Positions 5,074 to 56,028 of a DNA stretch of 64,000 bases are shown here, one piece after another. A model generated the notes under the pieces. It was not told the origin of the DNA. It did no database searches and worked only from the letters and a program-made list of their open reading frames with translations. The translations under genes were made by a program, and so were the position numbers. The stretch is taken from NCBI GenBank assembly GCA_964566505.1, contig CAZMIM010000002.1:46529-110528 (forward strand), written 5' to 3'. The DNA is from an uncultured Candidatus Saccharibacteria bacterium (GTDB lineage Bacteria; Patescibacteriota; Minisyncoccia; Phycocordibacterales; PCTT01). Position 1 is the first letter of the stretch, and each line of letters opens with the position of its first letter.

Positions 5074-5104
5074 AAATAATTTCTTAATGAGCGAAGTGAA
5101 TTTA

Positions 5105-5150
5105 GAAATTATTTATCCGCCTAAGTTTCCGAAGGAAAATTTGTGCGGAT
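5105..5150 (-). promoter_or_regulatory. conserved 5'-leader hairpin of the rplJ transcript (second copy of the rpsJ-leader motif)
   Basis: attatttatccgcctaagttt...gtgcggattttct forms the same ATCCGC/GCGGAT hairpin and flanks as 729-777. Confidence 0.45.
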
Positions 5151-5176
5151 TTTCTAAAACACCTTTCACTCGAAAT

Positions 5177-5199
5177 TAAAAAACCTCTCGCAAGAGAGG
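5177..5199 (-). terminator. terminator or attenuator hairpin in the rplJ leader
   Basis: On the minus strand, cctctcttgcgagagg is followed by a T6 run, about 110 nt upstream of the rplJ start. Confidence 0.45.
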
Positions 5200-5295
5200 G
5201 TCAAAGCCATAATATGCAAAAAGCATAGTAGTTCGACCTAACACAGGATTTATATGTCCCGAGGGGTAACCTATGATCTCCGGCTTATGGGACAT

Positions 5296-5324
5296 ACAAT
5301 ACACAAAAGACATGTATAAGTCAA
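5296..5324 (-). promoter_or_regulatory. sigma70-like promoter, TTGACT-N17-TATTGT (minus strand)
   Basis: The same TTGAC(C/T)-N17-TATTGT architecture recurs at 24352-24380 and 24729-24757. It would drive a ~100-nt leader or sRNA that ends at the 5177-5199 hairpin, or reads through into rplJ. Confidence 0.35.
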
Positions 5325-5341
5325 CGACTTCTCTTTAAAAC

Positions 5342-5378
5342 AAAAAAAAAAGCGCGGTTCTCGAGTCGAGAACCGCGC
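5342..5378 (-). terminator. strong rho-independent terminator (27-nt hairpin plus T10) on the minus strand
   Basis: gcgcggttctcgagtcgagaaccgcgc is followed on the minus strand by ten T residues. Confidence 0.65.
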
Positions 5379-5379
5379 C

Positions 5380-5640
5380 GGCTAGCGCAGGGCTAGATTT
5401 TAACCCCAGGAAGCTGAGGCCGACCATCTTGCTTCATCTCTGGGGAGATGGTCATAAGGTGTTGTGAAAAGAATATCAAACATTTGTAGTTCCTGTACCC
5501 CATAGGGTGCTACCTCCTGTTCGATACGCTGACCTGTCTGGTCAGTCTTTCCAGCTCTTTTAATGTACGAATCTATAAATAGTATAGCGCATACAAGATA
5601 TTTGTCAAGCGATTTTATCTTTTCTTTTTTAAAAAACTAA
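5380..5640 (-). ncRNA. candidate structured non-coding RNA (unidentified) ending at the 5342-5378 terminator
   Basis: The 670-nt stretch between rplJ and the SIMPL gene has no ORF of 60 aa or more. It contains several nested stems (ccccag...ctgggg, gaccatct...agatggtc, gctgacc...ggtcagt), and a strong terminator ends it on the minus strand. Confidence 0.2.
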
Positions 5641-5665
5641 AAAACAGCTTTGTTGAGCCATCAAA

Positions 5666-5690
5666 ACGGCTCACTTTTAAAGTGAGCCGT
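5666..5690. terminator. rho-independent terminator downstream of the 5748-6554 gene
   Basis: acggctcacttttaaagtgagccgt; nearly the same hairpin recurs at 63717-63749. Confidence 0.55.
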
Positions 5691-5747
5691 TGAATATACT
5701 TAGTCTTTACCCACGAGCTCCAAGTTCTGAGCTCTGAGCACCAATAC

Positions 5748-6554
5748 TTAACGAATTTGGTATGTAATTGTTACTGTTGAACGAATTGTATTCTCTCCAA
5801 CAGGGATATTTGCTGTCGGATAAGAAACCGCACCGTCCATCATCGCATCTCCTCCATATGCTCGTGATTCTGCATACATCACACCTGGATACCCCCTATC
5901 TTCATAAAAGCTAGCTACTCTTACAATCCTTACACCAAGATCTTTTGCAAGTCGCTTTGCTTTTTCTTCCGCATCTTCAATCGCCTGCTCTCTTGCATCC
6001 GCTTTTAGTGTGTCCTCGTCATCAATTGAGAAATTGATTCCTGAAACATTATCAGCCCCTTCATTTCCTACAAGTGATAGCAAATTACCAACCGCTTCAG
6101 TGTCTCGAACTTTTACTTGTACAGCATGATTTACCTCATATCCGCGAAGCTCTTCTCGTCCTGGCTCACATGGATATGTAATACACTGAATTCTAATGTA
6201 GTCGTATTGTGGGTAAATGTTGTAGCTAAGAGTTTTGATGTCTTTTTCTTCTACATCATTCTCTTTAAGCAAATCAAGAATTGCATTCATTTCTCTTGTA
6301 ACAACCTCTTGTGCTGAAGCAACATCCTTTGCCTCTTCTCGCACAGTGAATGTAAATGTTGCTACATCTGGAATAGCCACCACTTCCCCTTCTCCTGTAA
6401 CACTAATAGTGTTTTGATACGCAAACTCAGAACCGATAAATCGAGTCTCTTTTGCTTCATTAATAAACTTAAATAGCACAAACAACGAAAGAACAGTTAG
6501 GAGCAAAAGTCCCATGTTTACAAGCTGTTTTGTTTTATTCTCTGGAATAATCAT
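5748..6554 (-). CDS. SIMPL-domain (DUF541/YggE-like) secreted or membrane-anchored protein
   Basis: The 268-aa ORF has an N-terminal TM or signal segment, then ISVTGEGEVVAIPDVATFTFTV and the rest of the SIMPL-family pattern. Confidence 0.65.
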   Translation of the reverse strand: MIIPENKTKQLVNMGLLLLTVLSLFVLFKFINEAKETRFIGSEFAYQNTISVTGEGEVVAIPDVATFTFTVREEAKDVASAQEVVTREMNAILDLLKENDVEEKDIKTLSYNIYPQYDYIRIQCITYPCEPGREELRGYEVNHAVQVKVRDTEAVGNLLSLVGNEGADNVSGINFSIDDEDTLKADAREQAIEDAEEKAKRLAKDLGVRIVRVASFYEDRGYPGVMYAESRAYGGDAMMDGAVSYPTANIPVGENTIRSTVTITYQIR

Positions 6555-6721
6555 ATGTATATATGGTTATTATCTTTATAATCACCCGTAGTATAACACC
6601 CTTATATAAATAAGAAACTCTTTTGTATAAAAGGCATCTAATTGTTGACCATAGTGTATTTTTATGGTATCTTCCCGACGGAATTGAAACTAAACAACCA
6701 ACCATCTTTTGAGGTAATTCA

Positions 6722-7852
6722 ATGAAAAAGATTCTTTGGTGGATTGCACTCTTGGCACTCGTGCCGATGTTTGCAACCGCCCAGCAGATGGAGTACACCA
6801 GCACGGAAAAATTTCCTGTCGGTGAACACGAAGCTCCTGTAAGCCTCAGGACAGAACTGCGCGACGCTGTGTGCGGAGAAATCCGTGGCGAAGCGCACGT
6901 TATTGTACGAGGACACTACGACAGTCGTGAATACCCACTGGACAACCATGATCAGCAGTTCTTTTTAGGGCTCAGACGTGGTGCTGATGTAGCTCAATAC
7001 ATGGAACGCGTGTGCGCAATGCACAGAAGCAACTTCTCAGTACAGAGCTCATTTGCGCCCGGTGATCCGGACGACCCTCAAGGGAACGAGTCCAGAACAG
7101 TCACAATCATTTGGGGATTCTCAGATACTTCAGACTTCCAAACGGCTCAAGACTCCTACAACATGGACCTGGAGGACTTCTTCAACGAATTCCTCAATCC
7201 TTGGAAGGAGCTTGATCTTGCAAACCAGGCAGAAATGCTTGAGATTATGCGTTCTGTTGATGAGAAAATGATTGCATCGCAACTACAGCTTGCAAACATC
7301 TCTCGTCAAATCGATGAGCTTGCAGCCATGTCATGGAAACTCCCTCGCTGGAGCTTCCAGACCGGCATGCAGTTCTCGAGCAAATTTGGAACTGGCTTCA
7401 CCTTCTCGCTTTGTCGTAACTACTTTGACCAGAACATCGACTTCTGCCTCAAAGCATTTGCGGAAAACGAAAGCCACGAAGCACAAGCACTGCACCGCCC
7501 CTACCCTAATCAAGAAGTTCTTCATTGGGGAAAGTGGTACAGTGCCTCACTCATCATCAGGCCGTACCTGAAGAGCTTGGGCGAAAGTGCTCGAATCTTC
7601 ATGGACCTCGGTATCGGAGTAGCTCACGTGAACTACAATGGACCTCCGGACAAAAGCATCGGATACAACACTACCGGCATCATGCCCTCGATCGGATTTG
7701 GTCTCAAAACCAGATGGCGTTCGTGGGGGCTGGAGTTCGTAGGTACCGAGGAAGTCTGGATGTTCCCACAAGGCGTGGTGCTCCCGTCTTTCGAAGATGG
7801 TGACTACCATGTGAGCCTAGCTGGCTCTTTTGCTCTTTCGTATCATTTCTAG
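6722..7852 (+). CDS. OmpA-like domain protein with a C-terminal OMP-type beta-barrel; anomalously GC-rich
   Basis: The 376-aa ORF has a signal peptide (MKKILWWIALLALVPMFATAQQ) and an OmpA_C-like segment (VIVRGHYDSREYPLDNHDQQFFLGLRRGADVAQYM). Its C-terminal 150 aa are alternating-hydrophobic beta-strand sequence ending in ...SLAGSFALSYHF, a terminal aromatic typical of BamA substrates. The gene's GC looks 10 or more points above its flanks. Confidence 0.6.
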   Translation: MKKILWWIALLALVPMFATAQQMEYTSTEKFPVGEHEAPVSLRTELRDAVCGEIRGEAHVIVRGHYDSREYPLDNHDQQFFLGLRRGADVAQYMERVCAMHRSNFSVQSSFAPGDPDDPQGNESRTVTIIWGFSDTSDFQTAQDSYNMDLEDFFNEFLNPWKELDLANQAEMLEIMRSVDEKMIASQLQLANISRQIDELAAMSWKLPRWSFQTGMQFSSKFGTGFTFSLCRNYFDQNIDFCLKAFAENESHEAQALHRPYPNQEVLHWGKWYSASLIIRPYLKSLGESARIFMDLGIGVAHVNYNGPPDKSIGYNTTGIMPSIGFGLKTRWRSWGLEFVGTEEVWMFPQGVVLPSFEDGDYHVSLAGSFALSYHF

Positions 7853-7874
7853 GAAGTACCGCTTCCTATACAAA

Positions 7875-7903
7875 ACGCCCCGTTGCAGAATGCAACGGGG
7901 CGT
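7875..7903. terminator. bidirectional rho-independent terminator
   Basis: acgccccgttgcagaatgcaacggggcgt lies between two convergent genes. Confidence 0.6.
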
Positions 7904-7917
7904 CTTTCGTTTAATCT

Positions 7918-33097: not shown

Positions 33098-33135
33098 AGA
33101 AAAAAGGCCGACGAAATTGGATTTCGTCGGCCTTT
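33098..33135 (-). terminator. rho-independent terminator downstream of the lipoprotein gene
   Basis: On the minus strand, aggccgacgaaatccaatttcgtcggcct is followed by a T-run. Confidence 0.55.
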
Positions 33136-33152
33136 CATGGTTTCTTCTACTA

Positions 33153-33587
33153 CTAGTAAGGCGTGACCTTAACTCCCAGCAGACCGTTGTAGTGGCGATA
33201 AACGCTCACATCAACCATTGCGCACCCTGAATTTCTGTCGAAGCGGCTTGCTTTAACAGATACAGGATCGGCGCGGACAGTTCGATTTTCCGAATCAATG
33301 AGATTCACATAGACATTCACTCGCGCGTCTGCTATGTACCTCCCATATTCATCAGAGAGCCTGTCTCTGTCGATGGTATGGCGTGAGTAACCAAGATACG
33401 GCACATTGACAAAATTGTCCTCCTGGCCGGTCTTGGCACGAACTGTCATCCCTTCCTCGGTTGAGTTGAAGACTTCTACGCACCCAGCGTAATGGGCGTC
33501 GAAATATCCCCCTTCTTCAGTGAGAGAGTCAACGACACCGCACCCTGTCAAAAACACAACAGAGCAGATCAAGAAAATACGTTTCAT
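33153..33587 (-). CDS. lipoprotein (hypothetical), anomalously GC-rich
   Basis: From the internal Met the sequence reads MKRIFLICSVVFLTGC, a lipobox. The body of the gene is visibly GC-rich relative to its flanks. Confidence 0.5.
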   Translation of the reverse strand: MKRIFLICSVVFLTGCGVVDSLTEEGGYFDAHYAGCVEVFNSTEEGMTVRAKTGQEDNFVNVPYLGYSRHTIDRDRLSDEYGRYIADARVNVYVNLIDSENRTVRADPVSVKASRFDRNSGCAMVDVSVYRHYNGLLGVKVTPY

Positions 33588-33730
33588 CGTATTATGCTCT
33601 AAAGAGCGGTTGGTGATACTTCTATATATATTATACCATTTTATATACCTATTTGTCAAGAACGACTATATAGCTTCTATCCCCTATTTAAGCCACATAA
33701 TCCACTTGGCTAATGTTACAATAGGCTTAT

Positions 33731-41650: not shown

Positions 41651-42748
41651 CTATTTGTTCATCGGCATTGCGATGTAGATAAAACTAGAATCCCCTACCC
41701 CTTGAACATAAATAGGTTTTCCAGGCCCTATTTTAAAAACCAAACTGTCTGTCGTTATTGATTGAAAACAATCAAAGACATTACGATAACTAAAACTAAC
41801 TGTCTGCGGGTCTCCTGAGAGCGCTGCAGAGACATTAATTGAGCTTTCTCCAAGCTCTTTATTGCTTGTTTTTATAATAAACTTTTTCTCTTTTGGTTTT
41901 ACCTCGAATGTAATTCTATTGAATTTGTCTGAGAAAATATTTGCCTGCTTCATAACATCAATAACATCTTGTTTTAGAACCACACACTCTGTTTCATACT
42001 CTTTTGGAATAATCTGCCTATAATCAGGAAATACTCCATCAACAACTCTTGATGTTACATACAAATCACCAATAGAAAATCCTATTTGATTTTGAGTAAT
42101 ACTTATCTCAACTTCACCTTTAATATCATCAAAAACCTTAATAACATCTGAAACATTTTTGAATGGAATCAAAATTGATTCAAAATCATCAAGTGATTTA
42201 AATGAAACACTCTTTTCTGCAAGTCTAAATGAATCTGTTGCAGCAAACACAACAGAACCTGACTCGTTATATATATAAACACTCGCAAGCTCTGGTTTCA
42301 TACTTTGCGGTGAAGCACTGTACCAAACAGATTTTAGACCATGAATAAATTTATCAATAGGAAGTTTTAGTGTTTTATCAGACACAACACGAGGAATAGA
42401 AGGAAATTCTTCATGAGGATATGTTTTTACTTTTGTTTGTGAATTATTTGTAGTTACAAGAAGAGTATTATCTTTTGTTTCGAGAGTAATTTTTGAATCT
42501 TGAGTTATGTTCCCAATAAAACTCTTGAGAAGCTCGGCAGGAACAGCTACTGTGCCCTCTTCTTCAACTTTTACAGGTATTTTTATCTCAACTCCCAGAT
42601 CAAGATTTGTTGCTCGAATAGTGAGAGTGTTATTTTTTGCTACAAGCAAAATATATTTCAATACAGGTAACGTAACATTTTTACTTGTTACCTTATCTGC
42701 TTTTGAAATTGCATTCTCTATTTTTTCTTTTAAACATTCTAACTTCAT
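41651..42748 (-). CDS. dnaN: DNA polymerase III beta sliding clamp
   Basis: The 365-aa ORF has the three-domain clamp pattern and sits directly downstream of dnaA. Confidence 0.9.
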   Translation of the reverse strand: MKLECLKEKIENAISKADKVTSKNVTLPVLKYILLVAKNNTLTIRATNLDLGVEIKIPVKVEEEGTVAVPAELLKSFIGNITQDSKITLETKDNTLLVTTNNSQTKVKTYPHEEFPSIPRVVSDKTLKLPIDKFIHGLKSVWYSASPQSMKPELASVYIYNESGSVVFAATDSFRLAEKSVSFKSLDDFESILIPFKNVSDVIKVFDDIKGEVEISITQNQIGFSIGDLYVTSRVVDGVFPDYRQIIPKEYETECVVLKQDVIDVMKQANIFSDKFNRITFEVKPKEKKFIIKTSNKELGESSINVSAALSGDPQTVSFSYRNVFDCFQSITTDSLVFKIGPGKPIYVQGVGDSSFIYIAMPMNK

Positions 42749-43012
42749 GGTTGTGTATTATTTTCTTTTTTAAATATATTATTACTATTATTAGGGCTGT
42801 TGATATGTGGGAAAGTTGTAAATATAAATCTATATAAGGATGTATTTGAAAATATTTTTTGTGAAAAACACTGCTTATATGAGGATTAATGGTGATAATT
42901 TGGTTAATAACTTTGACTGATTGATACTTATTAAATACTTTCAACATTTACTTTCTTTTTTATACCTAAGTTATTCATATTTGAAATCACCACCTATGCA
43001 CATATTTATCCC
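42749..43012. other. AT-rich dnaA-dnaN intergenic region with DnaA-box-like 9-mers (possible oriC-associated sequence or DUE)
   Basis: The 264-nt stretch looks more than 75% AT and contains tgtgggaaa, ttatcccct, and cttatctggtggat. Confidence 0.3.
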
Positions 43013-44359
43013 CTATAACATATTTCTTATCTGGTGGATTTCTTGAGATAACACACTGTCTGTCTCTAACTCTTTCTTTATCTTTTCATACGAGTGAATT
43101 ACTGTTGTATGGTCCCTACCCCCAAGTTTCTGGCCAATTGTTGGGTATGCGATGTTATAGTCTTCACGAAGTATATACATAATAATTTGCCGAGGTTTTA
43201 CCACTTCTTTCTTTCTAGTCTTTTTATAAACATTCTCCTCTTCTATATTGTAAAAATCAGTAATGATTCGAATAATATCCTCAATAGGAGCTGTTCTTTT
43301 TGATTTAATACTGTTTCGTACAAGATGTTTTACCTCATTTAAAGAAAGTTCTCTATCTTTTAGTTGTGATTGAACAACAACAACATTAAATACCCCCTCA
43401 AGTTCTCGGATGTTGCTCCCAATCATAGATGCAAGATAATCAAGAACCTCTGGGTTTAGAGTTATGTTGTGTTGTTTTGATTTTGCTTGAAGAATCGCAA
43501 CTCTAGATTCGTGGTCTGGTGGAGAAATATCAACTACCATACCTGCGCTAAATCGAGATTTAAGTCTATCTTCCATATTTTGAAGATAGTTTGGGTGCAT
43601 GTCAGACGAGAAAATAATCTGCTTGTTGTTGTCGTATAGAGTATTGAATAGATGAAACAGCTCTTCTTGGCTCTTCTCTTTCTTAGAAAGAAACTGAATA
43701 TCATCCATAATCAAAACATCGTATTTTCTATACTTTTCTTTAAAGAGGTTCATTTTATTTTGACGAATTGCATTTGTTACATCAACAACAAACTTCTCAG
43801 ATGTCATATAAAACACTTTTATATTCGAATATGACTTCTTTAGGTGGTTTCCTACAGACTGAATAAGGTGTGTTTTACCACAACCAGTGCGTCCATATAC
43901 AAAAAGAGGGTTATATACCACACCAGGACTCTTTATGATTGCCTGAGAGGCTGCATATGCAAGCTCATTGAATGGTCCAACAATAAAAGAATCAAAAGTA
44001 TATCGAGGGTTAAGGTTGTCTTCCCTGTTTATGTATACATCACTTAGTGGTAGAGCTCCTTTTGTGAGATCAAGGTCACTTGAGTGTTCTGCTATTTCTT
44101 TTGCTTCAGGTTTTTCTCTTGTTACAACGTACTCAACACTTCGCACATGCTCTACAAGTTCTCTAAGGGTTTTGAGAATAAACTTATGATATTTCTCAGA
44201 TAGCCATGTTTTTACAAATTCATTTGGTACTCCTATATATACAACTCCATCTTCTTCCTTTAAAATATATGTCTCGCTAAACCATGTGTTAAATGTTGCT
44301 TTTGTTACATTTAGTTCTGCTTCTACGAGTACGTTTTCCCAAAGTTGTTTTGTATCCAT
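43013..44359 (-). CDS. dnaA: chromosomal replication initiator DnaA
   Basis: The start is taken at the internal MDTKQLWENV. The ORF has AAA+ Walker A (GRTGCGKTHL), sensor motifs, and a C-terminal DnaA-box-binding HTH (..KLGGRDHTTVIH..). Confidence 0.9.
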   Translation of the reverse strand: MDTKQLWENVLVEAELNVTKATFNTWFSETYILKEEDGVVYIGVPNEFVKTWLSEKYHKFILKTLRELVEHVRSVEYVVTREKPEAKEIAEHSSDLDLTKGALPLSDVYINREDNLNPRYTFDSFIVGPFNELAYAASQAIIKSPGVVYNPLFVYGRTGCGKTHLIQSVGNHLKKSYSNIKVFYMTSEKFVVDVTNAIRQNKMNLFKEKYRKYDVLIMDDIQFLSKKEKSQEELFHLFNTLYDNNKQIIFSSDMHPNYLQNMEDRLKSRFSAGMVVDISPPDHESRVAILQAKSKQHNITLNPEVLDYLASMIGSNIRELEGVFNVVVVQSQLKDRELSLNEVKHLVRNSIKSKRTAPIEDIIRIITDFYNIEEENVYKKTRKKEVVKPRQIIMYILREDYNIAYPTIGQKLGGRDHTTVIHSYEKIKKELETDSVLSQEIHQIRNML

Positions 44360-44581
44360 GTCTAAAAAGTTAGTGTGTCTATTATATAATGATGGGGAAA
44401 ACGCTATAACTTGTGGAAAGTATGTAAATATGTTAATAATGTGTGGATACAATACCAGGATTAGTATATAAAAGTATGTCAACAACCCCATACCAGAGCA
44501 AAGCACGGTACAGGGCGAGAAATAGACAAAAACATACTCCTAGTATATAGTCTTAAGGTAAAAACTTGTAAATAATACGTT
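44360..44581. other. candidate oriC: dnaA-rpmH intergenic region with DnaA-box-like sites
   Basis: The region contains ttgtggaaa (44411-44419) and tgtggatac (44442-44450). It sits at the canonical position between divergent dnaA and rpmH. Confidence 0.4.
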
Positions 44582-44716
44582 ATGTCAACAACATATCAGC
44601 CCAAAAAAAGAAAAAGAAGTAAAACACACGGGTTTTTAACTCGTTCAAAAACAACTTCTGGGAAAAATATTCTCAAAAGTCGTCGAAGAAAAGGCCGAAA
44701 GAAGCTTTCAGTGTAA
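44582..44716 (+). CDS. rpmH: 50S ribosomal protein L34
   Basis: The 44-aa product [44 protein letters not shown] was translated manually. It is below the 60-aa ORF-track cutoff. Confidence 0.85.
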
Positions 44717-44721
44717 ATACT

Positions 44722-45057
44722 ATGTCAACACACAAGCACAGAGTTTCATCAAAAGACTTCTCTGTAGTTGTTTCAACTGGAAAAACAGTTAGAAACGGTG
44801 TGTGTACTCTTAAATATATAGAAAATGAGACACCACAATCCCCTACTTTGGTGTCTTTTTCTATACCAAAATCAGTTGAAAAAGGTGTAGTAAAAAGAAA
44901 TAAGCTAAAAAGAGTGGGTCGAGAAGTCCTTCGTTCTGTATATAAAGATATAAAACCAGGTTTTGTTTGTGTGGTTTTTTGTTATAGCAACAACAAAGAA
45001 GACATAACAATAGACATGGTTAGAGAGCTTTTTGAAAAAGCAGAGCTTCTAAATTGA
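44722..45057 (+). CDS. rnpA: ribonuclease P protein component
   Basis: The 111-aa basic protein lies directly after rpmH and carries the RNR-like motif ..RNKLKRVGREVLR. Confidence 0.8.
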   Translation: MSTHKHRVSSKDFSVVVSTGKTVRNGVCTLKYIENETPQSPTLVSFSIPKSVEKGVVKRNKLKRVGREVLRSVYKDIKPGFVCVVFCYSNNKEDITIDMVRELFEKAELLN

Positions 45058-45087
45058 AAAGAAGCTTAAATCAGGTACAATAACACA

Positions 45088-45858
45088 ATGATTGGATCAA
45101 TTTGGAACACTATTATATATAATCCGTTGTACAACGGATTCATTTTTTTAGCGGACATTCTACCATGGGCAGACCTTGGTGTGATTATTATCCTATTTAC
45201 TCTTGTTATTAAGCTTATTCTCTTCCCTCTTTCAATTCGCGCAACAAAAACACAACAAGCGGTGCGAACTATTGAACCAGAGATTAAAAAGCTCCGAGAA
45301 AAATATAAAAATGATAAACAAACACAAGCTCTCGAGGTTATGGAGCTCTATAAAGAGCACAATATAAAGCCTTTTTCTGGATTTCTTACTATTTTGATAC
45401 AAATTCCTATTATTTTTGGATTGTATTTTATTTTCCTACGAGGTGGACTACCAATGGTTAACGCAGACATATTATATTCCTTTGTTAAAGTTCCAGAGAT
45501 GATAAATACCACATTTCTCGGAGTGATGAATGTTACAGGAAAGAGCATTATATTGGCCCTGTTGACAGGTATAACTCAATTTTTCCATACAAAAATATCA
45601 TTTAAGAATCAAGACGATTTAAATGATAAAAAACTCGGAGAAGGTTCTTTGAAGGATGATTTTGTAAAGACAATGAAACTACAAATGAAATACGTGCTAC
45701 CTGTTTTTGTAGCGGTTATTTCATACACACTTTCAGCTGCAATCGCACTGTATTGGACAACAAGTAATATTTTTCATATAGTACAAGAGCTATATGTGGA
45801 GCGGATGGTACGTAATCCTAAGAAAAAGGATGAGTCCCCTGCCCCACAAAGCTCTTAG
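45088..45858 (+). CDS. yidC: membrane protein insertase YidC (short form)
   Basis: The 256-aa ORF has five TMs and the 60-kDa-IMP family core (..ILFPLSIRATKTQQAV..EHNIKPFSG..). Confidence 0.85.
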   Translation: MIGSIWNTIIYNPLYNGFIFLADILPWADLGVIIILFTLVIKLILFPLSIRATKTQQAVRTIEPEIKKLREKYKNDKQTQALEVMELYKEHNIKPFSGFLTILIQIPIIFGLYFIFLRGGLPMVNADILYSFVKVPEMINTTFLGVMNVTGKSIILALLTGITQFFHTKISFKNQDDLNDKKLGEGSLKDDFVKTMKLQMKYVLPVFVAVISYTLSAAIALYWTTSNIFHIVQELYVERMVRNPKKKDESPAPQSS

Positions 45859-46339: not shown

Positions 46340-46362
46340 AAAACCGCCAGAGGCGGTTTTTT
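46337..46362. terminator. bidirectional rho-independent terminator
   Basis: aaaaaaccgccagaggcggtttttt lies between the convergent jag and the 46361-47575 gene. Confidence 0.6.
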
Positions 46363-47575
46363 AGAGCTCTATTCCCCACGCACTTAAGTCTCTTTTGTTT
46401 ATGAAGTAAAGATAATTTTCATCTTCATTGATAATAAGATTTGTTCCATCTATAAATTGAGAAACATCTTCTTGTGGGGTCATGATTTTGTCTGTAGCAA
46501 AACTGTTTATATCAACTTTCCAAAATACGTCATTAAAGAAAAACTCTCCTTTGTACCAATCATCAGGATAGAGTGCTTGTTGTATAAACTCAGGGACAGC
46601 ACAGTATAGTGATTCTTCTTCGAACCACGTACATTTCTCAGGAAGTGTTGTTATTGGAAGCTCCTGTGAGGTGTCTTCTGAGACATTGTACAGATATGTA
46701 TCGAAGCCACCAAAGATGTTTGTTCGTGCATACAAAACAAAAGAGCCTTCTGGTGATACGAGTGTTGTAAGGCCATCTGCAGACAGGATTTTATTAAATG
46801 AGCGGGATGAAACAGAGAAAAAATATAGTGAACCGTGTGTGTTTGCGGTTGGCGCGCTTGTGAATGCTATTTGGTTTGGGCTAAACCACTGCAGGTTCCA
46901 GTTTTTGTAAGAAGAGTTAAAGATATTTCGAGTGTTTCCGGTTGTTTGTGTGTAGTCTATACCAACAACATCCAAAACACGATCTATTAAGTAGAAATAT
47001 TTATTCCCTGCTGGTGATACAGCCACAGAAGAAATGTTGTTTGGTAAAAATTCTGTTTCAACACCGTTCTCATTAAGCACTCCCCACACACTCTCGATAC
47101 TTTCATAATCTGTATTTATATATTGATACAACACAGAGCCATTTTCACCTACAAGCGCTCTTTGAGAGCTTGGTACGGTTGTGTTCGAAACACGTTCTGT
47201 TTGTTTTGAGCTTGTGTCGTGCTCATATATATGACCGGTTGCCCTATTTACTATATATACACCATTTTCAGAAAGTCCAATTCCAGATGATGGTTGGTTG
47301 TGGGCTTTAAATACATTTTTAGCACTTCCACCGCTTACCCCAACAGAAGAAACAGCGCCTGAGTTTGTGCTCTCAAAAGGATCTTGTGTGGACTGGCCAC
47401 CTCCTCTATCGGTGTTCTCAGTTGGTTCTCCAAAAGGAAACAAGTCTACAGAGTCGTCTTGTCCCATTAAATCAATATTGTTATTTCCACCAATTCCACG
47501 AATTACAAAGAACCCCACAAGAGCAAGGATGAGAATGACAAGTATTAGAATTATAAAAAATCGCTTTTGGAACAT
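46361..47575 (-). CDS. membrane-anchored protein with a predicted extracytoplasmic beta-propeller-like domain (last gene of the T4SS-like operon)
   Basis: The start is taken at the internal MFQKRFFIILILVILIL (a TM anchor). The rest is beta-rich with repeated aromatic and Gly patterns. It is translationally coupled to the upstream gene. Confidence 0.4.
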   Translation of the reverse strand: MFQKRFFIILILVILILALVGFFVIRGIGGNNNIDLMGQDDSVDLFPFGEPTENTDRGGGQSTQDPFESTNSGAVSSVGVSGGSAKNVFKAHNQPSSGIGLSENGVYIVNRATGHIYEHDTSSKQTERVSNTTVPSSQRALVGENGSVLYQYINTDYESIESVWGVLNENGVETEFLPNNISSVAVSPAGNKYFYLIDRVLDVVGIDYTQTTGNTRNIFNSSYKNWNLQWFSPNQIAFTSAPTANTHGSLYFFSVSSRSFNKILSADGLTTLVSPEGSFVLYARTNIFGGFDTYLYNVSEDTSQELPITTLPEKCTWFEEESLYCAVPEFIQQALYPDDWYKGEFFFNDVFWKVDINSFATDKIMTPQEDVSQFIDGTNLIINEDENYLYFINKRDLSAWGIEL

Positions 47576-47576
47576 A

Positions 47577-48824
47577 TTAATCGTTATATACGGAAAAGTG
47601 GTCTGCAGAAATATGTGTCCCAAAGAACTTTATTTCTCCACCGCCGGGTATTGATATCCCCTCAAATGCTTCTAGTATTTTATCTGCTCTATTTCTTTCT
47701 CTTATTTCATACACAGCTCTTAACCCAGAATCGCTTGCAGCTTTAAAGAAAGACATCAGATATGCAACTTGTGTGTTTAAATCTGCAGTTTGAACCAGAA
47801 CAGCAGACTGGCCTGTGAAGTTCGCATCAAAACATGTTCCGTTGTAGTGACACTGACTCGCATGATTCCACTCTGGCGGGAAAGCCTCGGTTATTTGCCA
47901 CTGGATTTGCTGCTGACTCAGTGTTGTGTGTAAATTTTTAAGTTTTGGAATAAGATCTTTGTGGATACCCGTGTTCGAATCAGATTTTATAGGAAAATTA
48001 GCGTCTATTTCTTTAAAAATATCCAAACAATTATCTTCTCCTCCTAAGCACATTGCCCCAGAATCACTTGGCGACACAGCTTCATTTCCATCATCATCAA
48101 AATATATACAATCATCATAAACCTGAAAAAAGTTTTCTAGGTCAAGGTTTATAAAATTATTTGCCATAAGCGCGTATTGAGCGGTTTTACATTCTCCTTT
48201 GCTTTCAAAAGGTCCATATAAATCGTTTGTTAAGTGTACTCGAAAGTAAAAACCAGGGCCTCTGAATTGATTTTTGACCAGCGTTCCAAAGTTTGTTGTA
48301 GATGCTGTAGCCGGGCTGATACCCTTAAGTGAAGTGAGGTCTGGGTTTATTGTGTTTAGCAGCAGCACTGAAAGAAGAGCAATACCCAACCCCCAAAGAG
48401 CACGACGAACATCCGAAAGAGCATTGCTCTTCCCAGTAACAGAGCCTTGTGTCATATACTTTGCACCAGCAATAACAATCATAAGCACAGCAAAAGCAGA
48501 CGCGAGCCCGATTGATAGTTTGAGAATACTGTTTACAAAATCAGCAAATGAACGCTCGTCTCCGATTGGTAAAACAGAAACATATCTATTATTTTCTGCG
48601 TCAAAACGAAGTTCCTGGCCTTCTATATTTATAGGGGCTAGTAAAACATAATCAGATGTTCCATTTGGTGTTGTTCCATATATATATGCTTCACATTCAC
48701 TTTGAGAAAGACCCTGGTATAGCATACATTCTTCTATAACCGTTCTTTGTGCGAAAACAAAAAATGGGGTTAGTAGAAAATAAAATACAATAAAACTAAA
48801 TAAGATTTTTTTCATAATATTCAT
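47577..48824 (-). CDS. secreted/membrane protein with an internal VirB2/TrbC-pilin-like two-helix hairpin and a large Cys-rich C-terminal domain
   Basis: A signal peptide is followed by the FADFVNSILKLSIGLASAFAVLMIVIAGAKYMTQG...ALWGLGIALLSVLLLNTI hairpin, which is reminiscent of T4SS pilin subunits. About 250 aa of hydrophilic, Cys-containing domain follow. Confidence 0.4.
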   Translation of the reverse strand: MNIMKKILFSFIVFYFLLTPFFVFAQRTVIEECMLYQGLSQSECEAYIYGTTPNGTSDYVLLAPINIEGQELRFDAENNRYVSVLPIGDERSFADFVNSILKLSIGLASAFAVLMIVIAGAKYMTQGSVTGKSNALSDVRRALWGLGIALLSVLLLNTINPDLTSLKGISPATASTTNFGTLVKNQFRGPGFYFRVHLTNDLYGPFESKGECKTAQYALMANNFINLDLENFFQVYDDCIYFDDDGNEAVSPSDSGAMCLGGEDNCLDIFKEIDANFPIKSDSNTGIHKDLIPKLKNLHTTLSQQQIQWQITEAFPPEWNHASQCHYNGTCFDANFTGQSAVLVQTADLNTQVAYLMSFFKAASDSGLRAVYEIRERNRADKILEAFEGISIPGGGEIKFFGTHISADHFSVYND

Positions 48825-49516
48825 TATATATCACCAAATATTAGACGTAATTGCTGAGAAGCTCTAGAGAAAAGGTTGTTTTTATCACGAGCGGACAAAC
48901 TAATAGAAACAGAGCCTCCTACCCCACCATCTCGCAGAGTTATTTTTGGAGAATTATTATTTATTAAGTTTCTATTGATTTTCCACTCATAATCAACAAA
49001 ATAAGAATCTCTTTCTGAGGCAAAGAAGAACGGATACGCCTCGAGCGTAATTTCTGTGTCTGTTGTGTTTATCTCATCACCCCATGATTGTCCAAAAAGA
49101 GTTCCAAGAGCGGGGTTGTTTTTGTAAATATATATTTCTGGGTCTGATACTTGGAGAGAAATACTTTTATTTGAAATTACAGCGCCGTTCTCATCCACTA
49201 GCTCAAGCGTTACTGTATTATTTCTAGGAGAGCTTGTGAACACAAAAGTATCTTTACCAACACCAGATTGCTCAGCAATACCGTAGTTGTTAAATCTCCA
49301 TCGATAATTTAGTGATTGAGGATTTACCACATCAACAATCGCAACAACACGAACACTAGCGCCTACAGTAATAAGGGGTCGGCCTGTATAAAATGGCGGT
49401 GTATATGTTTCTGCTTCCCAAAGCAGATCAATATCATCTGCGGTCTGTGCACTTACTACATTAGAAAAAGAAAGAAAAACAAAAAGTATTATTGTTATGT
49501 AGAGTATTTTTTTCAT
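48824..49516 (-). CDS. secreted beta-rich protein (hypothetical)
   Basis: A signal peptide (MKKILYITIILFVFLSFSNVVSAQ) precedes an otherwise hydrophilic protein. Its stop overlaps the next start (TAATG). Confidence 0.4.
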   Translation of the reverse strand: MKKILYITIILFVFLSFSNVVSAQTADDIDLLWEAETYTPPFYTGRPLITVGASVRVVAIVDVVNPQSLNYRWRFNNYGIAEQSGVGKDTFVFTSSPRNNTVTLELVDENGAVISNKSISLQVSDPEIYIYKNNPALGTLFGQSWGDEINTTDTEITLEAYPFFFASERDSYFVDYEWKINRNLINNNSPKITLRDGGVGGSVSISLSARDKNNLFSRASQQLRLIFGDI

Positions 49517-49920
49517 TATGCTGCTCTATTTATAAGTCGCTCTTTTCTAGCAACTCGCTCTTGTTGGACACGAGAAAGTGTTTGGTTTGTTTTTTGTGCA
49601 CTTTGTTTCTCAGTATCCTCTTCTCGAGTTGCTTTGATGTTTAGAAATACTACTGTCGTAAGCTCAGGCAAAGCATTCACGATTGGTATAAGACCAACAA
49701 TCATTCCAACAACAGCTCCTTGCGCCATCTTTTTGTTTTGTGTGTATGGTGCGCCATTTATAATGAACCACACAGGAAATATTATCCAGCTCGCGAGCCA
49801 TGTTGCCCAGTTTGCAACAGTCCCTACCGCAAGGGCGGTAAGCAAAAGCTCTAGCAAGTCAATAAAGAGTGCTGTTCCGAGCATAAGCCATTTTGTGATG
49901 TCGCTGATTCGGTAGTCCAT
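49516..49920 (-). CDS. small polytopic membrane protein (hypothetical)
   Basis: The 134-aa ORF has about three TMs and is translationally coupled on both sides. Confidence 0.4.
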   Translation of the reverse strand: MDYRISDITKWLMLGTALFIDLLELLLTALAVGTVANWATWLASWIIFPVWFIINGAPYTQNKKMAQGAVVGMIVGLIPIVNALPELTTVVFLNIKATREEDTEKQSAQKTNQTLSRVQQERVARKERLINRAA

Positions 49921-51737
49921 TATTGTTGTGGGTTAACTGCGTCTTTTTGGTTCTTTATAGCCAAAAGCTGAGACGGGTCAGATGTAATTATTTGATCTTC
50001 TGTGTAAGAAGCAATAATCTTTATAGCCACATGCTTTAGACCTGCAAAGAATATTCCTTCCCCTACCCCAGATTCAAGGAGCAGATACTTTTCTTCGTCA
50101 GTTAGGTTGAAAGTTTTTTGCACTTCTTCAATGGCAGATGGACTTTGTTTTAGTAGTAGCTGTATAGAAGAGTTTGAGATAATAGGCATGCCGTATGGAG
50201 ATTTCAAAAAGTCGCCAACATCTTGTGTAATAGTTGAAAGCCCGAGGTAGTATTTTCGTCCTCGCTTTGCCATTCCAAACAGGAATGATGCAGTATCTTC
50301 TGAGCGCATCATCCACCACGCCTCATCAATTACCAAAAGCCGTTTCTTGAGCTCTTTTCGTACGGCGTTCCATATATAGTGGGTTACGATATGCATCGCT
50401 ACAGGCTTTAGCTCGTCTTCCATATCTCGTACTGAGAACACTACAAATTTCTTATCAATATCTACATTTGAAGCTTTATTAAGGAAGCCCGCCCATGTTC
50501 CTCGAGTGTATTTTGAAAGACGCTGTACAAGCGAGTCTGTTCCCTCTATTCCCGCAAGCACAAGCTCAAAATCAGATAGAAGCGGTGGCGAAATGTCTTT
50601 TAGGTCAGAGTCAGGGGTAATGTCTTTCAGCGCGTATGTTTCAGTTATAGCTTTGTCGATAATAGAATCCTCTTCTGGTGTAAGTCCACCGAGCATGATT
50701 CGCATAAGTCCCACAAGAGACACGATATGTGAACGAAGTACGTCTGCAGGAGACTCATCTTCTCGTGGTTTTGGAAGATCAAATGGGTTTATGTGGTGCT
50801 CTGATGTGAGTGAGATGTTGAAGTACCTACCGCCAGTAGATTCTGCTAGATATTCGTATTCTCTTTCTGGGTCAATAACAATTACATCAGTTCCAAACAT
50901 AAGTGAACGCAAAATCTCAAGCTTGGTAGCGTATGATTTTCCAGAACCAGCTTGCGCAAATGTTACAGAGTTATAGTTTTCCATTGAAAAACGGTCGAAG
51001 AGTATCAGGCTTGAGTTGTGTCGGTTGATTCCATAAAGTATTCCCCTATTTGATGTCAGGTCAAAAGAAATAAATGGGAACAAGCTAGATAGTGGTGATG
51101 AGTTTAGCTTTGAGTGCACTTTTAATGCATCGCTTGATATAGGAAGAACGCTTTTAAAGCCTTGCTCTTGCTGGAAGAGTGCTGGTTTTAGGTAGATAAG
51201 TTTTGATTCCAATACTGACTTAAGCTCTGACTCAATTTTATCGAGCTCATCTGAAGAGTCTCCATAAATAGTTATATAGAGCCCAACATCAAAGATGCGC
51301 TCTCGTGCTTGTTGTAGGTCATCTCGGAGCTGTTCAAGGTCTTGATAAGCTGTATCAAGCATTGGGTCTCGCACGAGTCCTTTTTCGTATCGTGTATTGA
51401 TTTGGCTTTCTACTTCAGCAACTTTTTTCTGGAACTTTTTTAGTATTTGGGCTGTGTCTATTGGGTTTACCACAATAGATACATCAAATTCCCTATCCAT
51501 GTTTACCACAGGAGAAAACCAACTATCAGAAAGAAACCGAGGGTACGAGATTACGAAAAATGTTCGAGCAACCTTGTCCCCCAGACCAAGCTCTTTTGAA
51601 GAAACTTTTAGTGCAGAAGGTGCAATAACATCTTGAAGCTCCAAAACCCCAGCCTCGTATATTTGCTGCGGAAGCACTGGTGTAATAGAAGGGTTTGCAG
51701 ACTCTTTATTCTTTTTTAGAAAATCAAATATGCCCAT
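49920..51737 (-). CDS. virB4: VirB4/TrbE/CagE-family T4SS ATPase, C-terminal ATPase portion
   Basis: The ORF has Walker A (FAQAGSGKSYATK) and Walker B (LLVIDEAWWMM) in a VirB4-type context. Its start follows the N-domain ORF's stop after a 1-nt gap. Confidence 0.8.
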   Translation of the reverse strand: MGIFDFLKKNKESANPSITPVLPQQIYEAGVLELQDVIAPSALKVSSKELGLGDKVARTFFVISYPRFLSDSWFSPVVNMDREFDVSIVVNPIDTAQILKKFQKKVAEVESQINTRYEKGLVRDPMLDTAYQDLEQLRDDLQQARERIFDVGLYITIYGDSSDELDKIESELKSVLESKLIYLKPALFQQEQGFKSVLPISSDALKVHSKLNSSPLSSLFPFISFDLTSNRGILYGINRHNSSLILFDRFSMENYNSVTFAQAGSGKSYATKLEILRSLMFGTDVIVIDPEREYEYLAESTGGRYFNISLTSEHHINPFDLPKPREDESPADVLRSHIVSLVGLMRIMLGGLTPEEDSIIDKAITETYALKDITPDSDLKDISPPLLSDFELVLAGIEGTDSLVQRLSKYTRGTWAGFLNKASNVDIDKKFVVFSVRDMEDELKPVAMHIVTHYIWNAVRKELKKRLLVIDEAWWMMRSEDTASFLFGMAKRGRKYYLGLSTITQDVGDFLKSPYGMPIISNSSIQLLLKQSPSAIEEVQKTFNLTDEEKYLLLESGVGEGIFFAGLKHVAIKIIASYTEDQIITSDPSQLLAIKNQKDAVNPQQ

Positions 51738-51738
51738 A

Positions 51739-52383
51739 TTATTTTAGTGGAATTGGTTTTTCTAGATCTCCAGGGTTGAATATTTTGTAATAAAGTTCGA
51801 TAAGCTCTTCTGTGCCAAGTCGTGCCACTTGTACTCCAGTACGAGAAAGACCTTGCTCTACTATTCCCACCCTTTGCTCAAGCTGTGAAAGGTATTCTTG
51901 GAATGTCTGATCATCATTTTGTGTGCTCTGACCCCCTTTTTTCTTTCCTGGAAGTAGTGATGTGATACCTCCCTTTTGTTTTATAACAGGAGGAGTATAA
52001 GGAACCACAACAAAGAAAGATTTTGACATAATATCTGACCCTTCAGTGAACTTTTTGATGAAGTTTATATATTCCTGGGTCTGAATCTTCATCAAATCAT
52101 TACTTTGTTTTGTTTGGAGCTCTTCTAGAAGCGCTATATACGGTCTGATATCAAGCTCTCGAGATTGGATGAAGAACTGCACAGAGAAATCTAGCGAGTT
52201 TAGGAAGTTTTGAAACTGGAACAATACAGACTCCTGCTCATCACGAGATTTAAGTGCAAGGTTTATAGACGAAGCCATCAAAACAGCCCTAAGCGACTTG
52301 TCTTTAAGTACCACAACGCCGCCTCGAATCTCCTCGATAGGTACAAAATTTTGTGCTGATTGTGCGTTTTGTGTAGTAGCCAT
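51739..52383 (-). CDS. VirB4/TrbE N-terminal domain protein (split from the ATPase portion)
   Basis: FVPIEEIRGGVVVLKDKSLRAVLMASSINLALKSRDEQES matches the CagE_TrbE_VirB N-domain pattern. Its stop at 51739-51741 is immediately followed by the ATG of the ATPase ORF. Confidence 0.55.
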   Translation of the reverse strand: MATTQNAQSAQNFVPIEEIRGGVVVLKDKSLRAVLMASSINLALKSRDEQESVLFQFQNFLNSLDFSVQFFIQSRELDIRPYIALLEELQTKQSNDLMKIQTQEYINFIKKFTEGSDIMSKSFFVVVPYTPPVIKQKGGITSLLPGKKKGGQSTQNDDQTFQEYLSQLEQRVGIVEQGLSRTGVQVARLGTEELIELYYKIFNPGDLEKPIPLK

Positions 52384-52385
52384 AG

Positions 52386-52829
52386 TTATCTAATGGTATC
52401 AGGTTTTTTATTTTGTGCTTCTTGTGAATACATGCTGTCTTTTACCCCCAAACTCCATGCAATATCTTTTAGCTTGCTATCAGATAGACGAGGAACAGTG
52501 ACCTGTTCTATTGCTGTTTTTGCAGAAGCGCTTTTTTGTGTCGGTTTTTTCTGATTTTTCTTCCAAATATAGAGCTTCCCCCCAAACGAATACTTTATAG
52601 CTGACTCCATAATCTCAATAAATGGTTTTCCATTGATTTTGTAGAAAGCGAGCGCAAGCGCCAAGCCAACAATGGGAACAATAAGAAGTATTGCAATGAT
52701 TGTTGGCAGGACTTGCCAGATAACAAACGCAATACCTCCCCCACCAGCAACATACACAAATTGTTTGAATGTGAGTGGGCCAAAGATTTTGTCTTCAACC
52801 TCGATAAATTGTGGTACTTGGAATTGCAT
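52386..52829 (-). CDS. VirB3-like / PrgI-family small membrane protein
   Basis: MQFQVPQFIEVEDKIFGPLTFKQFVY followed by two TM helices is the typical VirB3/PrgI pattern. It sits directly upstream of VirB4, as in canonical systems. Confidence 0.5.
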   Translation of the reverse strand: MQFQVPQFIEVEDKIFGPLTFKQFVYVAGGGGIAFVIWQVLPTIIAILLIVPIVGLALALAFYKINGKPFIEIMESAIKYSFGGKLYIWKKNQKKPTQKSASAKTAIEQVTVPRLSDSKLKDIAWSLGVKDSMYSQEAQNKKPDTIR

Positions 52830-52834
52830 AATAA

Positions 52835-53413
52835 TTATTCTACTGATTCTCGATATGGATCCGATGATTTTTGTGGGACATTTTGTTTCGGCTGAGGTGC
52901 TTTCTTTGTCTGGTTCTTAATCACAACAGGCTCATTTAGTTTTGAGCCAACAACAGCGTTTGTTTTCTGTGGTTTCTCTATTTCTTTTAGAAGCTCATCT
53001 GACACAGATGGTCTTGGCGCTTGGGTTTTCAGCTCTTGTGCGCTCGGGTGTTCTACTGGTTTTATTTTTTCTGCCGGCATAGGCTCGCTAACAGCTTGTC
53101 TTTTTGGTGCTATTAGGTGCTGTCTTATTGGTTGGAATATTTGTGAATCCACATCAGAGATTATTTGATTAATTTTTTCTTCAGGAAGTTGTAAGGCACT
53201 TTTTAGGTTTTTAGGAAAATCATTTGGTTGTGTAAACCCAAGGATAACCAAACTAATTTGGTCTGCCAAAAGCCCTGATTGCTCAATGTTTAGGCCGTGT
53301 TTTTCTTGAATTCCAGAGAGCGTTTCAATGGCGATATCTGTTGTGAGCGAGTCTTTAAGCTCTTGTGGAAGCTCTCCAAATCGCTCTATTCTTTTGTCTT
53401 TAGGAACACTCAT
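52835..53413 (-). CDS. hypothetical protein with a P/Q/K-rich low-complexity C-terminus
   Basis: The 192-aa ORF has no TMs and no recognisable family. Confidence 0.35.
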   Translation of the reverse strand: MSVPKDKRIERFGELPQELKDSLTTDIAIETLSGIQEKHGLNIEQSGLLADQISLVILGFTQPNDFPKNLKSALQLPEEKINQIISDVDSQIFQPIRQHLIAPKRQAVSEPMPAEKIKPVEHPSAQELKTQAPRPSVSDELLKEIEKPQKTNAVVGSKLNEPVVIKNQTKKAPQPKQNVPQKSSDPYRESVE

Positions 53414-53416
53414 TTT

Positions 53417-56014: not shown

Positions 56015-56028
56015 GAATTAATTAATGA

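Follow-up and report, generated by a model that had tools for sequence, protein, structure and literature searches.

Gene and locus

We analysed a stretch of 64,000 nucleotides from contig CAZMIM010000002.1 (assembly GCA_964566505.1) of an uncultured Candidatus Saccharibacteria bacterium, hereafter called the window. Its small genes and many hypothetical proteins are typical of the Candidate Phyla Radiation (CPR). The gene studied here is an open reading frame (ORF) on the + strand (6722-7852), which encodes a protein of 376 amino acids that carries a GHYD...LGLRRGADVAQYM segment and ends in SFALSYHF. An earlier reading of the sequence (the original prediction) had singled out this ORF as GC-rich, and its position, length, motifs and composition were all borne out. 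The structure proposed for the product, i.e., a signal peptide, an N-terminal OmpA_C-like domain and a C-terminal barrel of the outer-membrane protein (OMP) type, in a monoderm-looking CPR genome, is also supported by our analysis.

The ORF is the strongest compositional outlier of the window. Among the 61 window ORFs of at least 100 amino acids, it has a GC content of 0.504 against a mean of 0.395 (z 3.07), and a GC content at third codon positions (GC3) of 0.562 against 0.305 (z 4.13). Codon usage within amino acids differs from that of the rest of the window (chi-square, p = 1.8e-29), and the tetranucleotide signature is the most deviant of 315 sliding windows of 1131 bp (z 4.67). The predicted difference from the rest of the contig in GC, GC3 and tetranucleotides is therefore real. 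Since the values at first and second positions are close to average (GC1/GC2/GC3 of 0.55/0.40/0.56), the shift is located at synonymous sites. It is mainly a shift towards C (0.34 at third positions vs 0.14), and the change is abrupt and limited to this gene alone.

The gene has well-formed expression signals. A consensus scan placed a promoter at 6645-6673 on the + strand, with a -35 box TTGACC (6645-6650), a 17-nt spacer and an extended -10 box TGgTATCTT (6665-6673). The sequence GAGG at 6711-6714 (+), 7 nt ahead of the ATG, matches a ribosome-binding site (RBS), and RNA structure in the 5' untranslated and start region was not significant (z 0.58). Downstream, a GC-rich hairpin terminator (7872-7906) has 16-nt arms that are 94% complementary, a 3-nt loop and T-runs on either side. 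It lies between convergent genes and is common to the ORF and to a DoxX-like gene (7918-8409, - strand). Strong bidirectional terminators had been predicted on both flanks. The downstream one stood, whereas the upstream gap (6555-6721) turned out to be a divergent promoter region in which we found no hairpin or terminator. Rfam families were found neither in this gap nor near the second GC-rich island of the window, which is described below. No direct or inverted repeats, target-site duplications, or integrase or mobility genes were found flanking the ORF.

A small family restricted to CPR-type genomes

An exhaustive HMMER scan of 1.84 billion representative proteins, extended through their cluster members to 15 billion proteins, retrieved 12 further representatives with identities of 29-42% and E-values from 1e-76 to 1e-8, which makes 13 with the query. 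Counting cluster members, the family has about 20 sequences in 15 billion proteins. The exhaustive scan was needed because a word-indexed homology search missed most members: it recovered the query alone, and the family profile retrieved two of the 13 in the same search. All 13 representatives come from CPR-type (Paceibacteria-type) contexts, and no diderm or other non-CPR homologue was found among the 1.84 billion representatives. One member is named, PIP86912.1 (A0A2H0DXK9), an “OmpA-like domain-containing protein” of Candidatus Campbellbacteria. We found no paralogue of either domain of the protein in the window or in any of the fetched loci, and a fold search of the viral database BFVD returned generic phage OMP barrels only, with no pointer to an origin.

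The family is tiny, fast-evolving and CPR-restricted. Orthologues are 29-39% identical, against 90% for EF-Tu, 83-91% for S10, 57-68% for SIMPL and 65-75% for the cobalamin adenosyltransferase-type protein Cob_adeno_trans (CobAT). Two pairs of strains (L011/L016 and L008/L013) are near-identical. The Campbellbacteria locus was 100% identical at the nucleotide level in four independent datasets: L016/L017 (JGI 3300025142 and ENA ERZ27293414), L011 (Logan SRR6240784) and L012 (JGI 3300004209). These loci are one clonal population sampled repeatedly. A gene of 801 amino acids downstream in this locus holds two 227-nt direct repeats with 91.6% identity.

Conserved gene order

Orthologous loci drawn from ENA, JGI, NCBI and Logan assemblies share the order S10, EF-Tu, MscS-like, hypothetical, L12, L10, SIMPL, in some cases YceI and PAP2, then the gene itself on the + strand, followed by genes for proteins of 158 and 130 amino acids and by CobAT. 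This slot was found in at least four lineages (Paceibacteria/Campbellbacteria), among them that of the window and those of L013, L009 and L016, and every relative that was examined had the gene at this site. The regulatory signals are conserved as well. The arrangement TTGACN-N14-TGGTA(T/A) recurs upstream of the orthologues in L013, L009, L016 and L010, orthologues carry a GAGG or AGGAGG RBS at an equal distance from the start, and equivalent strong hairpin terminators lie 3' of every orthologue. A second, more divergent subfamily occupies a conserved slot of its own (RF-1, L31, the gene, and an SLT_2 lytic transglycosylase); the named nearest relatives of the RF-1 beside it belong only to Paceibacterota, Parcubacteria or Patescibacteria. 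When GTDB was scanned with the neighbouring SIMPL protein, all relatives retrieved were 42-49% identical and lacked the synteny.

The window agrees with this order except that YceI and PAP2 are absent. In the relatives (8404-9796 of L013, 1453-2814 of L009, 9149-9802 of L016), PAP2, often with YceI, lies between SIMPL and the barrel gene. PAP2 is transcribed divergently from the latter, and the corresponding interval of the window (6555-6721) is devoid of both genes. The pairing with lipid-related PAP2 and YceI in relatives may be a hint at function. A little further upstream, the 674 bp between rplJ (L10) and SIMPL (5074-5747) hold no convincing ORF or Rfam match (the best, L20_leader, has an E-value of 0.09, below threshold), and the same position in L016 is occupied by a ParE/antitoxin pair. 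It may represent an unrecognised leader, or else a remnant left by degradation.

The Logan assembly SRR15635848 matches positions 6498-8158 of the window exactly, across both junctions of the gene. None of the marks of a recently acquired genomic island was found, be it an empty site in relatives, mobility genes or insertion scars, or homologues in a donor. The gene is native and conserved, and not a recent import.

Domain organisation of the protein

We modelled the protein with AlphaFold2 (AF2). The single-sequence model was useless (predicted local distance difference test, pLDDT, of 34). The alignment of the 13 representatives gave a model with a mean pLDDT of 79, in which the N-terminal domain reached about 90 and most strands of the barrel 80-94. 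Residues 1-20 (6722-6781, +) read as a Sec-type signal peptide, with MKKILWWIALLALVPMFATA preceding QQ at the predicted cleavage site, and a hydrophobic N-terminal leader is kept in all full-length family members.

Residues 22-135 (6785-7126, +) form an OmpA-like peptidoglycan-binding domain with the motif GHYD (64-67)...LGLRRG (82-87). Searched alone against Pfam, the protein gave no OmpA match and only weak MotB/PomB matches. The family as a whole is more informative: PF00691 is matched by three of the 13 members (best E-value 8.5e-9), the orthologues of L009 and L016 carry precomputed OmpA matches, and the family profile matches structures in the PDB of MotB (E-value 1.7e-4), the OmpA family (3e-4), Pal (4.8e-4) and PomB, with E-values ranging to 5e-3. 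The modelled domain also matches solved OmpA-like domains, which have an alpha/beta sandwich fold. In such domains the Asp of GHxD and the Arg of LxxxRA contact the peptide stem. The protein has D67 and R86 at these positions, and in the family alignment the former is D or N and the latter is conserved. Hence, D67 and R86 are putative peptidoglycan ligand residues.

A helical stalk or linker follows (residues 136-204, 7127-7333, +), with modelled helices at 136-163 and 169-202. One family member matches the Lpp-type Alanine_zipper family. The C-terminal part (residues 205-376, 7334-7849, +) is modelled as a closed, antiparallel, eight-stranded barrel of the OMP type, with segments 239-248 and 252-258 counted as one kinked strand. 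Its strands are tilted and long (13-22 residues). In the comparison with known folds, soluble eight-stranded barrels (YceI, avidins and designed proteins) reach only 10-13.5.

The two faces of the strands differ significantly (p = 0.0013). One is hydrophobic and variable (mean Kyte-Doolittle hydropathy +2.40, conservation 0.40). The other is polar and conserved (-1.06 and 0.59), and holds invariant glycines and the conserved charges R217, E244, E248, E295, R325 and E338. Such a pattern would fit strands that are exposed to lipid on the outside of the barrel and packed around a polar interior. The distal end of the barrel bears a conserved crown (E248, H252, R259-P260, H268-W269-G270, S312-I313-G314 and F348-P349). 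Its loops (RPxP, HWG, GxPxxSIGWHHTG and FP) are the most conserved part (0.51-0.65), in contrast with the proximal turns (0.26-0.31), which points to a putative site of specific binding or of catalysis at this end. The C-terminus (L-S-Y-H-F, family consensus L-[TS]-hydrophobic-[HYR]-[FL]) resembles a beta-signal. The terminal residue is F, L or W in ten of the 13 members, three of which have a short extension beyond the last strand. This motif may be a mere constraint of the last strand.

An inherited GC bias

The GC content of the family member exceeds that of the rest of its locus in 10 out of 10 loci, by 0.02 to 0.15 (e.g., 0.489 vs 0.362 in L009, and 0.496 vs 0.363 in L016). At 29-39% identity the synonymous sites of the orthologues are saturated, and therefore an unameliorated donor signature cannot have survived. 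Because the gene is native, conserved, and GC-rich in orthologues encoded on AT-rich contigs, its high GC and GC3 are a maintained, conserved, gene-wide property of the family and no trace of recent transfer. The elevation concerns every domain, i.e., the signal peptide, the N-terminal domain, the linker and the barrel. On a Paceibacterota contig of 48% GC (L007, carrying P0012), the gene of the barrel family is not the outlier; on the same contig a highly charged, K/R/E-rich hypothetical protein of 352 amino acids (6827-7885, - strand) is the outlier in GC3 (0.657, z 3.4).

Two causes of the bias could be set aside. Translational selection is contradicted by codon deviations that are uncorrelated with those of EF-Tu and ribosomal proteins (r = 0.09), and by a GC3 that is no higher at conserved residues (0.510 vs 0.496, p = 0.56). 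A strand or replication effect does not fit the normal GC3 of the other genes on the + strand. The remaining candidates are GC-biased gene conversion in surface genes that evolve fast and recombine, and selection at the transcript level in abundant envelope mRNAs.

The window has one single other strong outlier (33153-33587, - strand), with a GC of 0.492 and a GC3 of 0.531. It deviates in codon usage in the same direction as the barrel gene, with the highest correlation of all genes (r = 0.73). It is a monocistronic gene for a predicted secreted lipoprotein of 144 amino acids, in which MKRIFLICSVVFLTG precedes the C, and no Pfam match was found for it. A near-perfect promoter, TTGACA-17-TGgTATAAT, lies at about 33640-33668 (- strand) and a strong terminator at about 33106-33143. 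These features hint at a class of monocistronic, GC-rich genes for envelope proteins in the source genome.

A putative wall-to-membrane tether and its alternatives

Taken together, these results make it reasonably probable that we are dealing with a native, vertically inherited and monocistronic envelope gene of CPR bacteria (Campbellbacteria-like Paceibacteria), probably strongly expressed, which belongs to a family with a “reverse OmpA” layout. The protein would be exported by the Sec machinery and lose its signal peptide, as its N-terminus suggests. Given its fold and motif, the N-terminal domain would then bind peptidoglycan non-covalently through D67 and R86, and the helical stalk of about 65 residues would keep the C-terminal domain at a distance from the wall. 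As the model and the alignment suggest, the barrel would sit in a lipid bilayer beyond the wall, with a hydrophobic, variable belt outside, a conserved interior of polar residues and Gly, and a crown rich in His, Arg and Ser on the far side that might act as a binding or catalytic site. Overall, the protein would be a wall-to-membrane tether with the N-to-C logic of OmpM/SlpA, but with an OmpA-like domain and a mini-barrel as its parts.

Several known systems resemble it in part. The OmpA of Escherichia coli type, like this protein, combines an eight-stranded barrel with the GHxD...LxxxRA peptidoglycan-binding domain that is common to OmpA_C-like, MotB and Pal proteins (PF00691), and is also monocistronic with a strong promoter and terminator. 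It differs in the order of the domains: here the peptidoglycan binder is N-terminal and the barrel C-terminal, with the stalk of about 65 residues between them. The barrel also lacks a sequence match to OmpA_membrane or another Pfam OMP family, and its host belongs to the CPR, regarded as monoderm. The OmpM/SlpA proteins of diderm Terrabacteria (PMC10628300, PMC9388160) have a wall binder, a coiled-coil stalk and a C-terminal barrel, which is the order of the AF2 model. Unlike them, our protein has an OmpA-like wall binder instead of an SLH domain (no family member matched SLH) and a barrel of eight strands instead of a large porin. TtoA of Thermus, the N-domain of OprF, NspA, OmpX/Ail, OmpW and PagL show no sequence homology with the barrel. 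In these small eight-stranded OMPs, variability is highest in the distal (“extracellular”) loops, whereas here the distal loops are the most conserved part, and no beta-barrel assembly machinery (BAM) is known in this lineage.

The membrane that would receive the barrel is the crux of this interpretation, and the original prediction had rightly asked what becomes of an outer-membrane barrel in a monoderm CPR bacterium, a puzzle that still stands. An OMP-type barrel is odd in a lineage that is presumed to lack an outer membrane. The options are that the cell itself has an outer lipid layer which has gone unrecognised, or that the barrel enters the membrane of a host; the energy-transducing cytoplasmic membrane is unlikely to be its home. 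Small barrels of the OmpA, OmpX and PagP kind fold into bilayers without BAM in vitro. The barrel might thus insert without BAM into the host outer membrane, as a “grappling hook” whose crown may harvest host lipids, or it might mark an unrecognised outer lipid layer of CPR bacteria, possibly as a miniaturised relic or analogue of OmpM. We put these two proposals forward tentatively, as rather unlikely.

A number of observations weigh against the tether model. CPR bacteria, or Patescibacteria, are regarded as devoid of an outer membrane, and no recipient membrane or insertase is known for them (PMC12102498; 10.1101/2021.05.31.446380). They are placed within the Terrabacteria and reported to have lost OmpM and the SLH/CsaB tether (10.1101/2021.05.31.446380). 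Direct data on their envelope are scarce (PMC8871954). We found no gene for BamA, Lpt, Lol or Tol-Pal components in the window, which at 64 kb is too short to exclude them. Neither the protein nor any of the 13 members matched the OMP-barrel families of Pfam and NCBIfam, and therefore the fold of the barrel would be known but its sequence family new. The AF2 model was built on 13 sequences, and the lipid-facing orientation of the strands is deduced from alternation and conservation, not from coordinates. The stalk has low pLDDT values (48-62) and a modest heptad a/d signal, which leaves a coiled coil weakly supported, if possible. Finally, the probable high expression is deduced from the quality of promoter, RBS and terminator.

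Some of these points favour a different explanation, in which the protein is a wall-anchored, soluble, eight-stranded barrel akin to lipocalins, YceI or avidins, binding a small hydrophobic or metal ligand without inserting into a membrane. It would dispense with the outer membrane and BAM that CPR bacteria are thought to lack (PMC12102498), and with the outer-membrane biogenesis genes missing from the window. In relatives the gene is paired divergently with PAP2 and lies beside YceI, both lipid-related, and a ligand might bind at the conserved, His-rich crown. Yet the variable hydrophobic face, with invariant glycines and charges opposite, looks like a lipid-exposed exterior, unlike a packed core, and the strands of 13-22 residues and the beta-signal-like end are at odds with a soluble barrel. 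We regard this alternative as improbable, though worth keeping in mind.

Less probable still is a membrane-embedded barrel enzyme of the PagL, PagP or OMPLA type, which would cut or transfer acyl chains, e.g., to harvest from the host lipids that CPR bacteria cannot make themselves. The invariant residues H252, R259, H268 and S312, and the near-invariant E248, lie at the distal end, where outer-membrane enzymes have their active sites, and the distal loops are conserved, unlike those of ordinary OMPs. The lipid phosphatase PAP2 and YceI adjoin the gene in relatives, but both are absent from the window, and the sequence of the barrel resembles neither the PagL nor the PagP family. Such an activity is compatible with the tether model and not exclusive of it.

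The explanations offered in the original prediction for the deviant composition fare much worse. A recent horizontal acquisition from a Gram-negative donor of about 50% GC, with the composition as unameliorated donor DNA, would account for the strong anomaly in GC, GC3, codons and tetranucleotides, for values of GC1, GC2 and GC3 that resemble those of a genome of about 50% GC, and for a fold class typical of diderms. It is contradicted by the synteny, since the same slot is found in four lineages with flanking proteins that are 57-90% identical; by the conserved native promoter and terminator; by the lack of homologues outside CPR-type contexts among the 1.84 billion representatives; and by orthologues that are GC-rich at 29-39% identity, at which amelioration should be complete. 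Target-site duplications, inverted repeats and integrase genes are also missing. We consider this scenario very unlikely. The ancestor of the clade might have received the barrel by an ancient transfer, but this would not explain the GC content of today. A chimeric contig, in which a Gram-negative fragment was joined to a CPR contig, would fit the abrupt change of composition at one gene only, but we give it practically no credit, since the Logan assembly spans both junctions exactly (though probably from the same reads) and the same gene order occurs in other lineages, in unrelated samples and assemblies from ENA, JGI and NCBI. The genomic contexts, the second assembly, the shared promoter and terminator, and the lack of repeats therefore lead us to reject both recent transfer and chimera.

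Other features of the window

The window encodes peptidoglycan synthesis functions (Ddl, two Mur ligases, PBP1A and M23/LysM) and parts of a type IV pilus. A cluster on the - strand (46361-55912) encodes a type IV secretion system (T4SS), with a T4SS pilin-like protein, a VirB4/TraG P-loop ATPase, PrgI, and unannotated proteins including an ORF of 831 amino acids. T4SS of the Gram-positive (monoderm) type, as in the window, have been described for Patescibacteria (PMC12102498). Two adjacent ORFs of 831 and 815 amino acids (53417-58476, - strand) have no Pfam match, and the GC2 of the second (0.442) is the highest among the large genes.

Closer to the barrel gene, a secreted protein of 659 amino acids (9809-11788, - strand) has two dockerin type I repeats and Ig-like domains (Big_13, Rib and Kre9/KNH). 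Its GC3 (0.212) is the lowest in the neighbourhood, and it is a possible surface adhesin. The region 41651-45858 contains dnaN (-), dnaA (-), rnpA (+) and yidC (+) beside the kilobase with the lowest GC of the window (42001-43000, 0.294), and is likely the replication-origin region. The cumulative GC skew of the window shows no clean turning point.

Implications

The analysis has brought out a small CPR-restricted family in which the OmpA domain order is reversed, a predicted barrel of the OMP type in bacteria presumed to be monoderm, and a GC bias that is inherited with the gene. The last of these shows that a gene may carry a strong anomaly in GC and codon usage as a stable trait passed on by inheritance, and that such an anomaly does not by itself indicate transfer, which matters for the composition-based detection of horizontal transfer in reduced genomes. 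OMP-type barrels, wall tethers and BamA serve as genomic proxies for a second membrane, and CPR bacteria are scored as monoderms in models of the diderm-to-monoderm transition. A conserved, wall-anchored barrel in these bacteria could be read as a sign of an unrecognised outer layer, or as a soluble re-use of the fold. If it proved to be a barrel that inserts independently of BAM into the membrane of another cell, it would bear on how these epibionts attach to their hosts and scavenge lipids from them.

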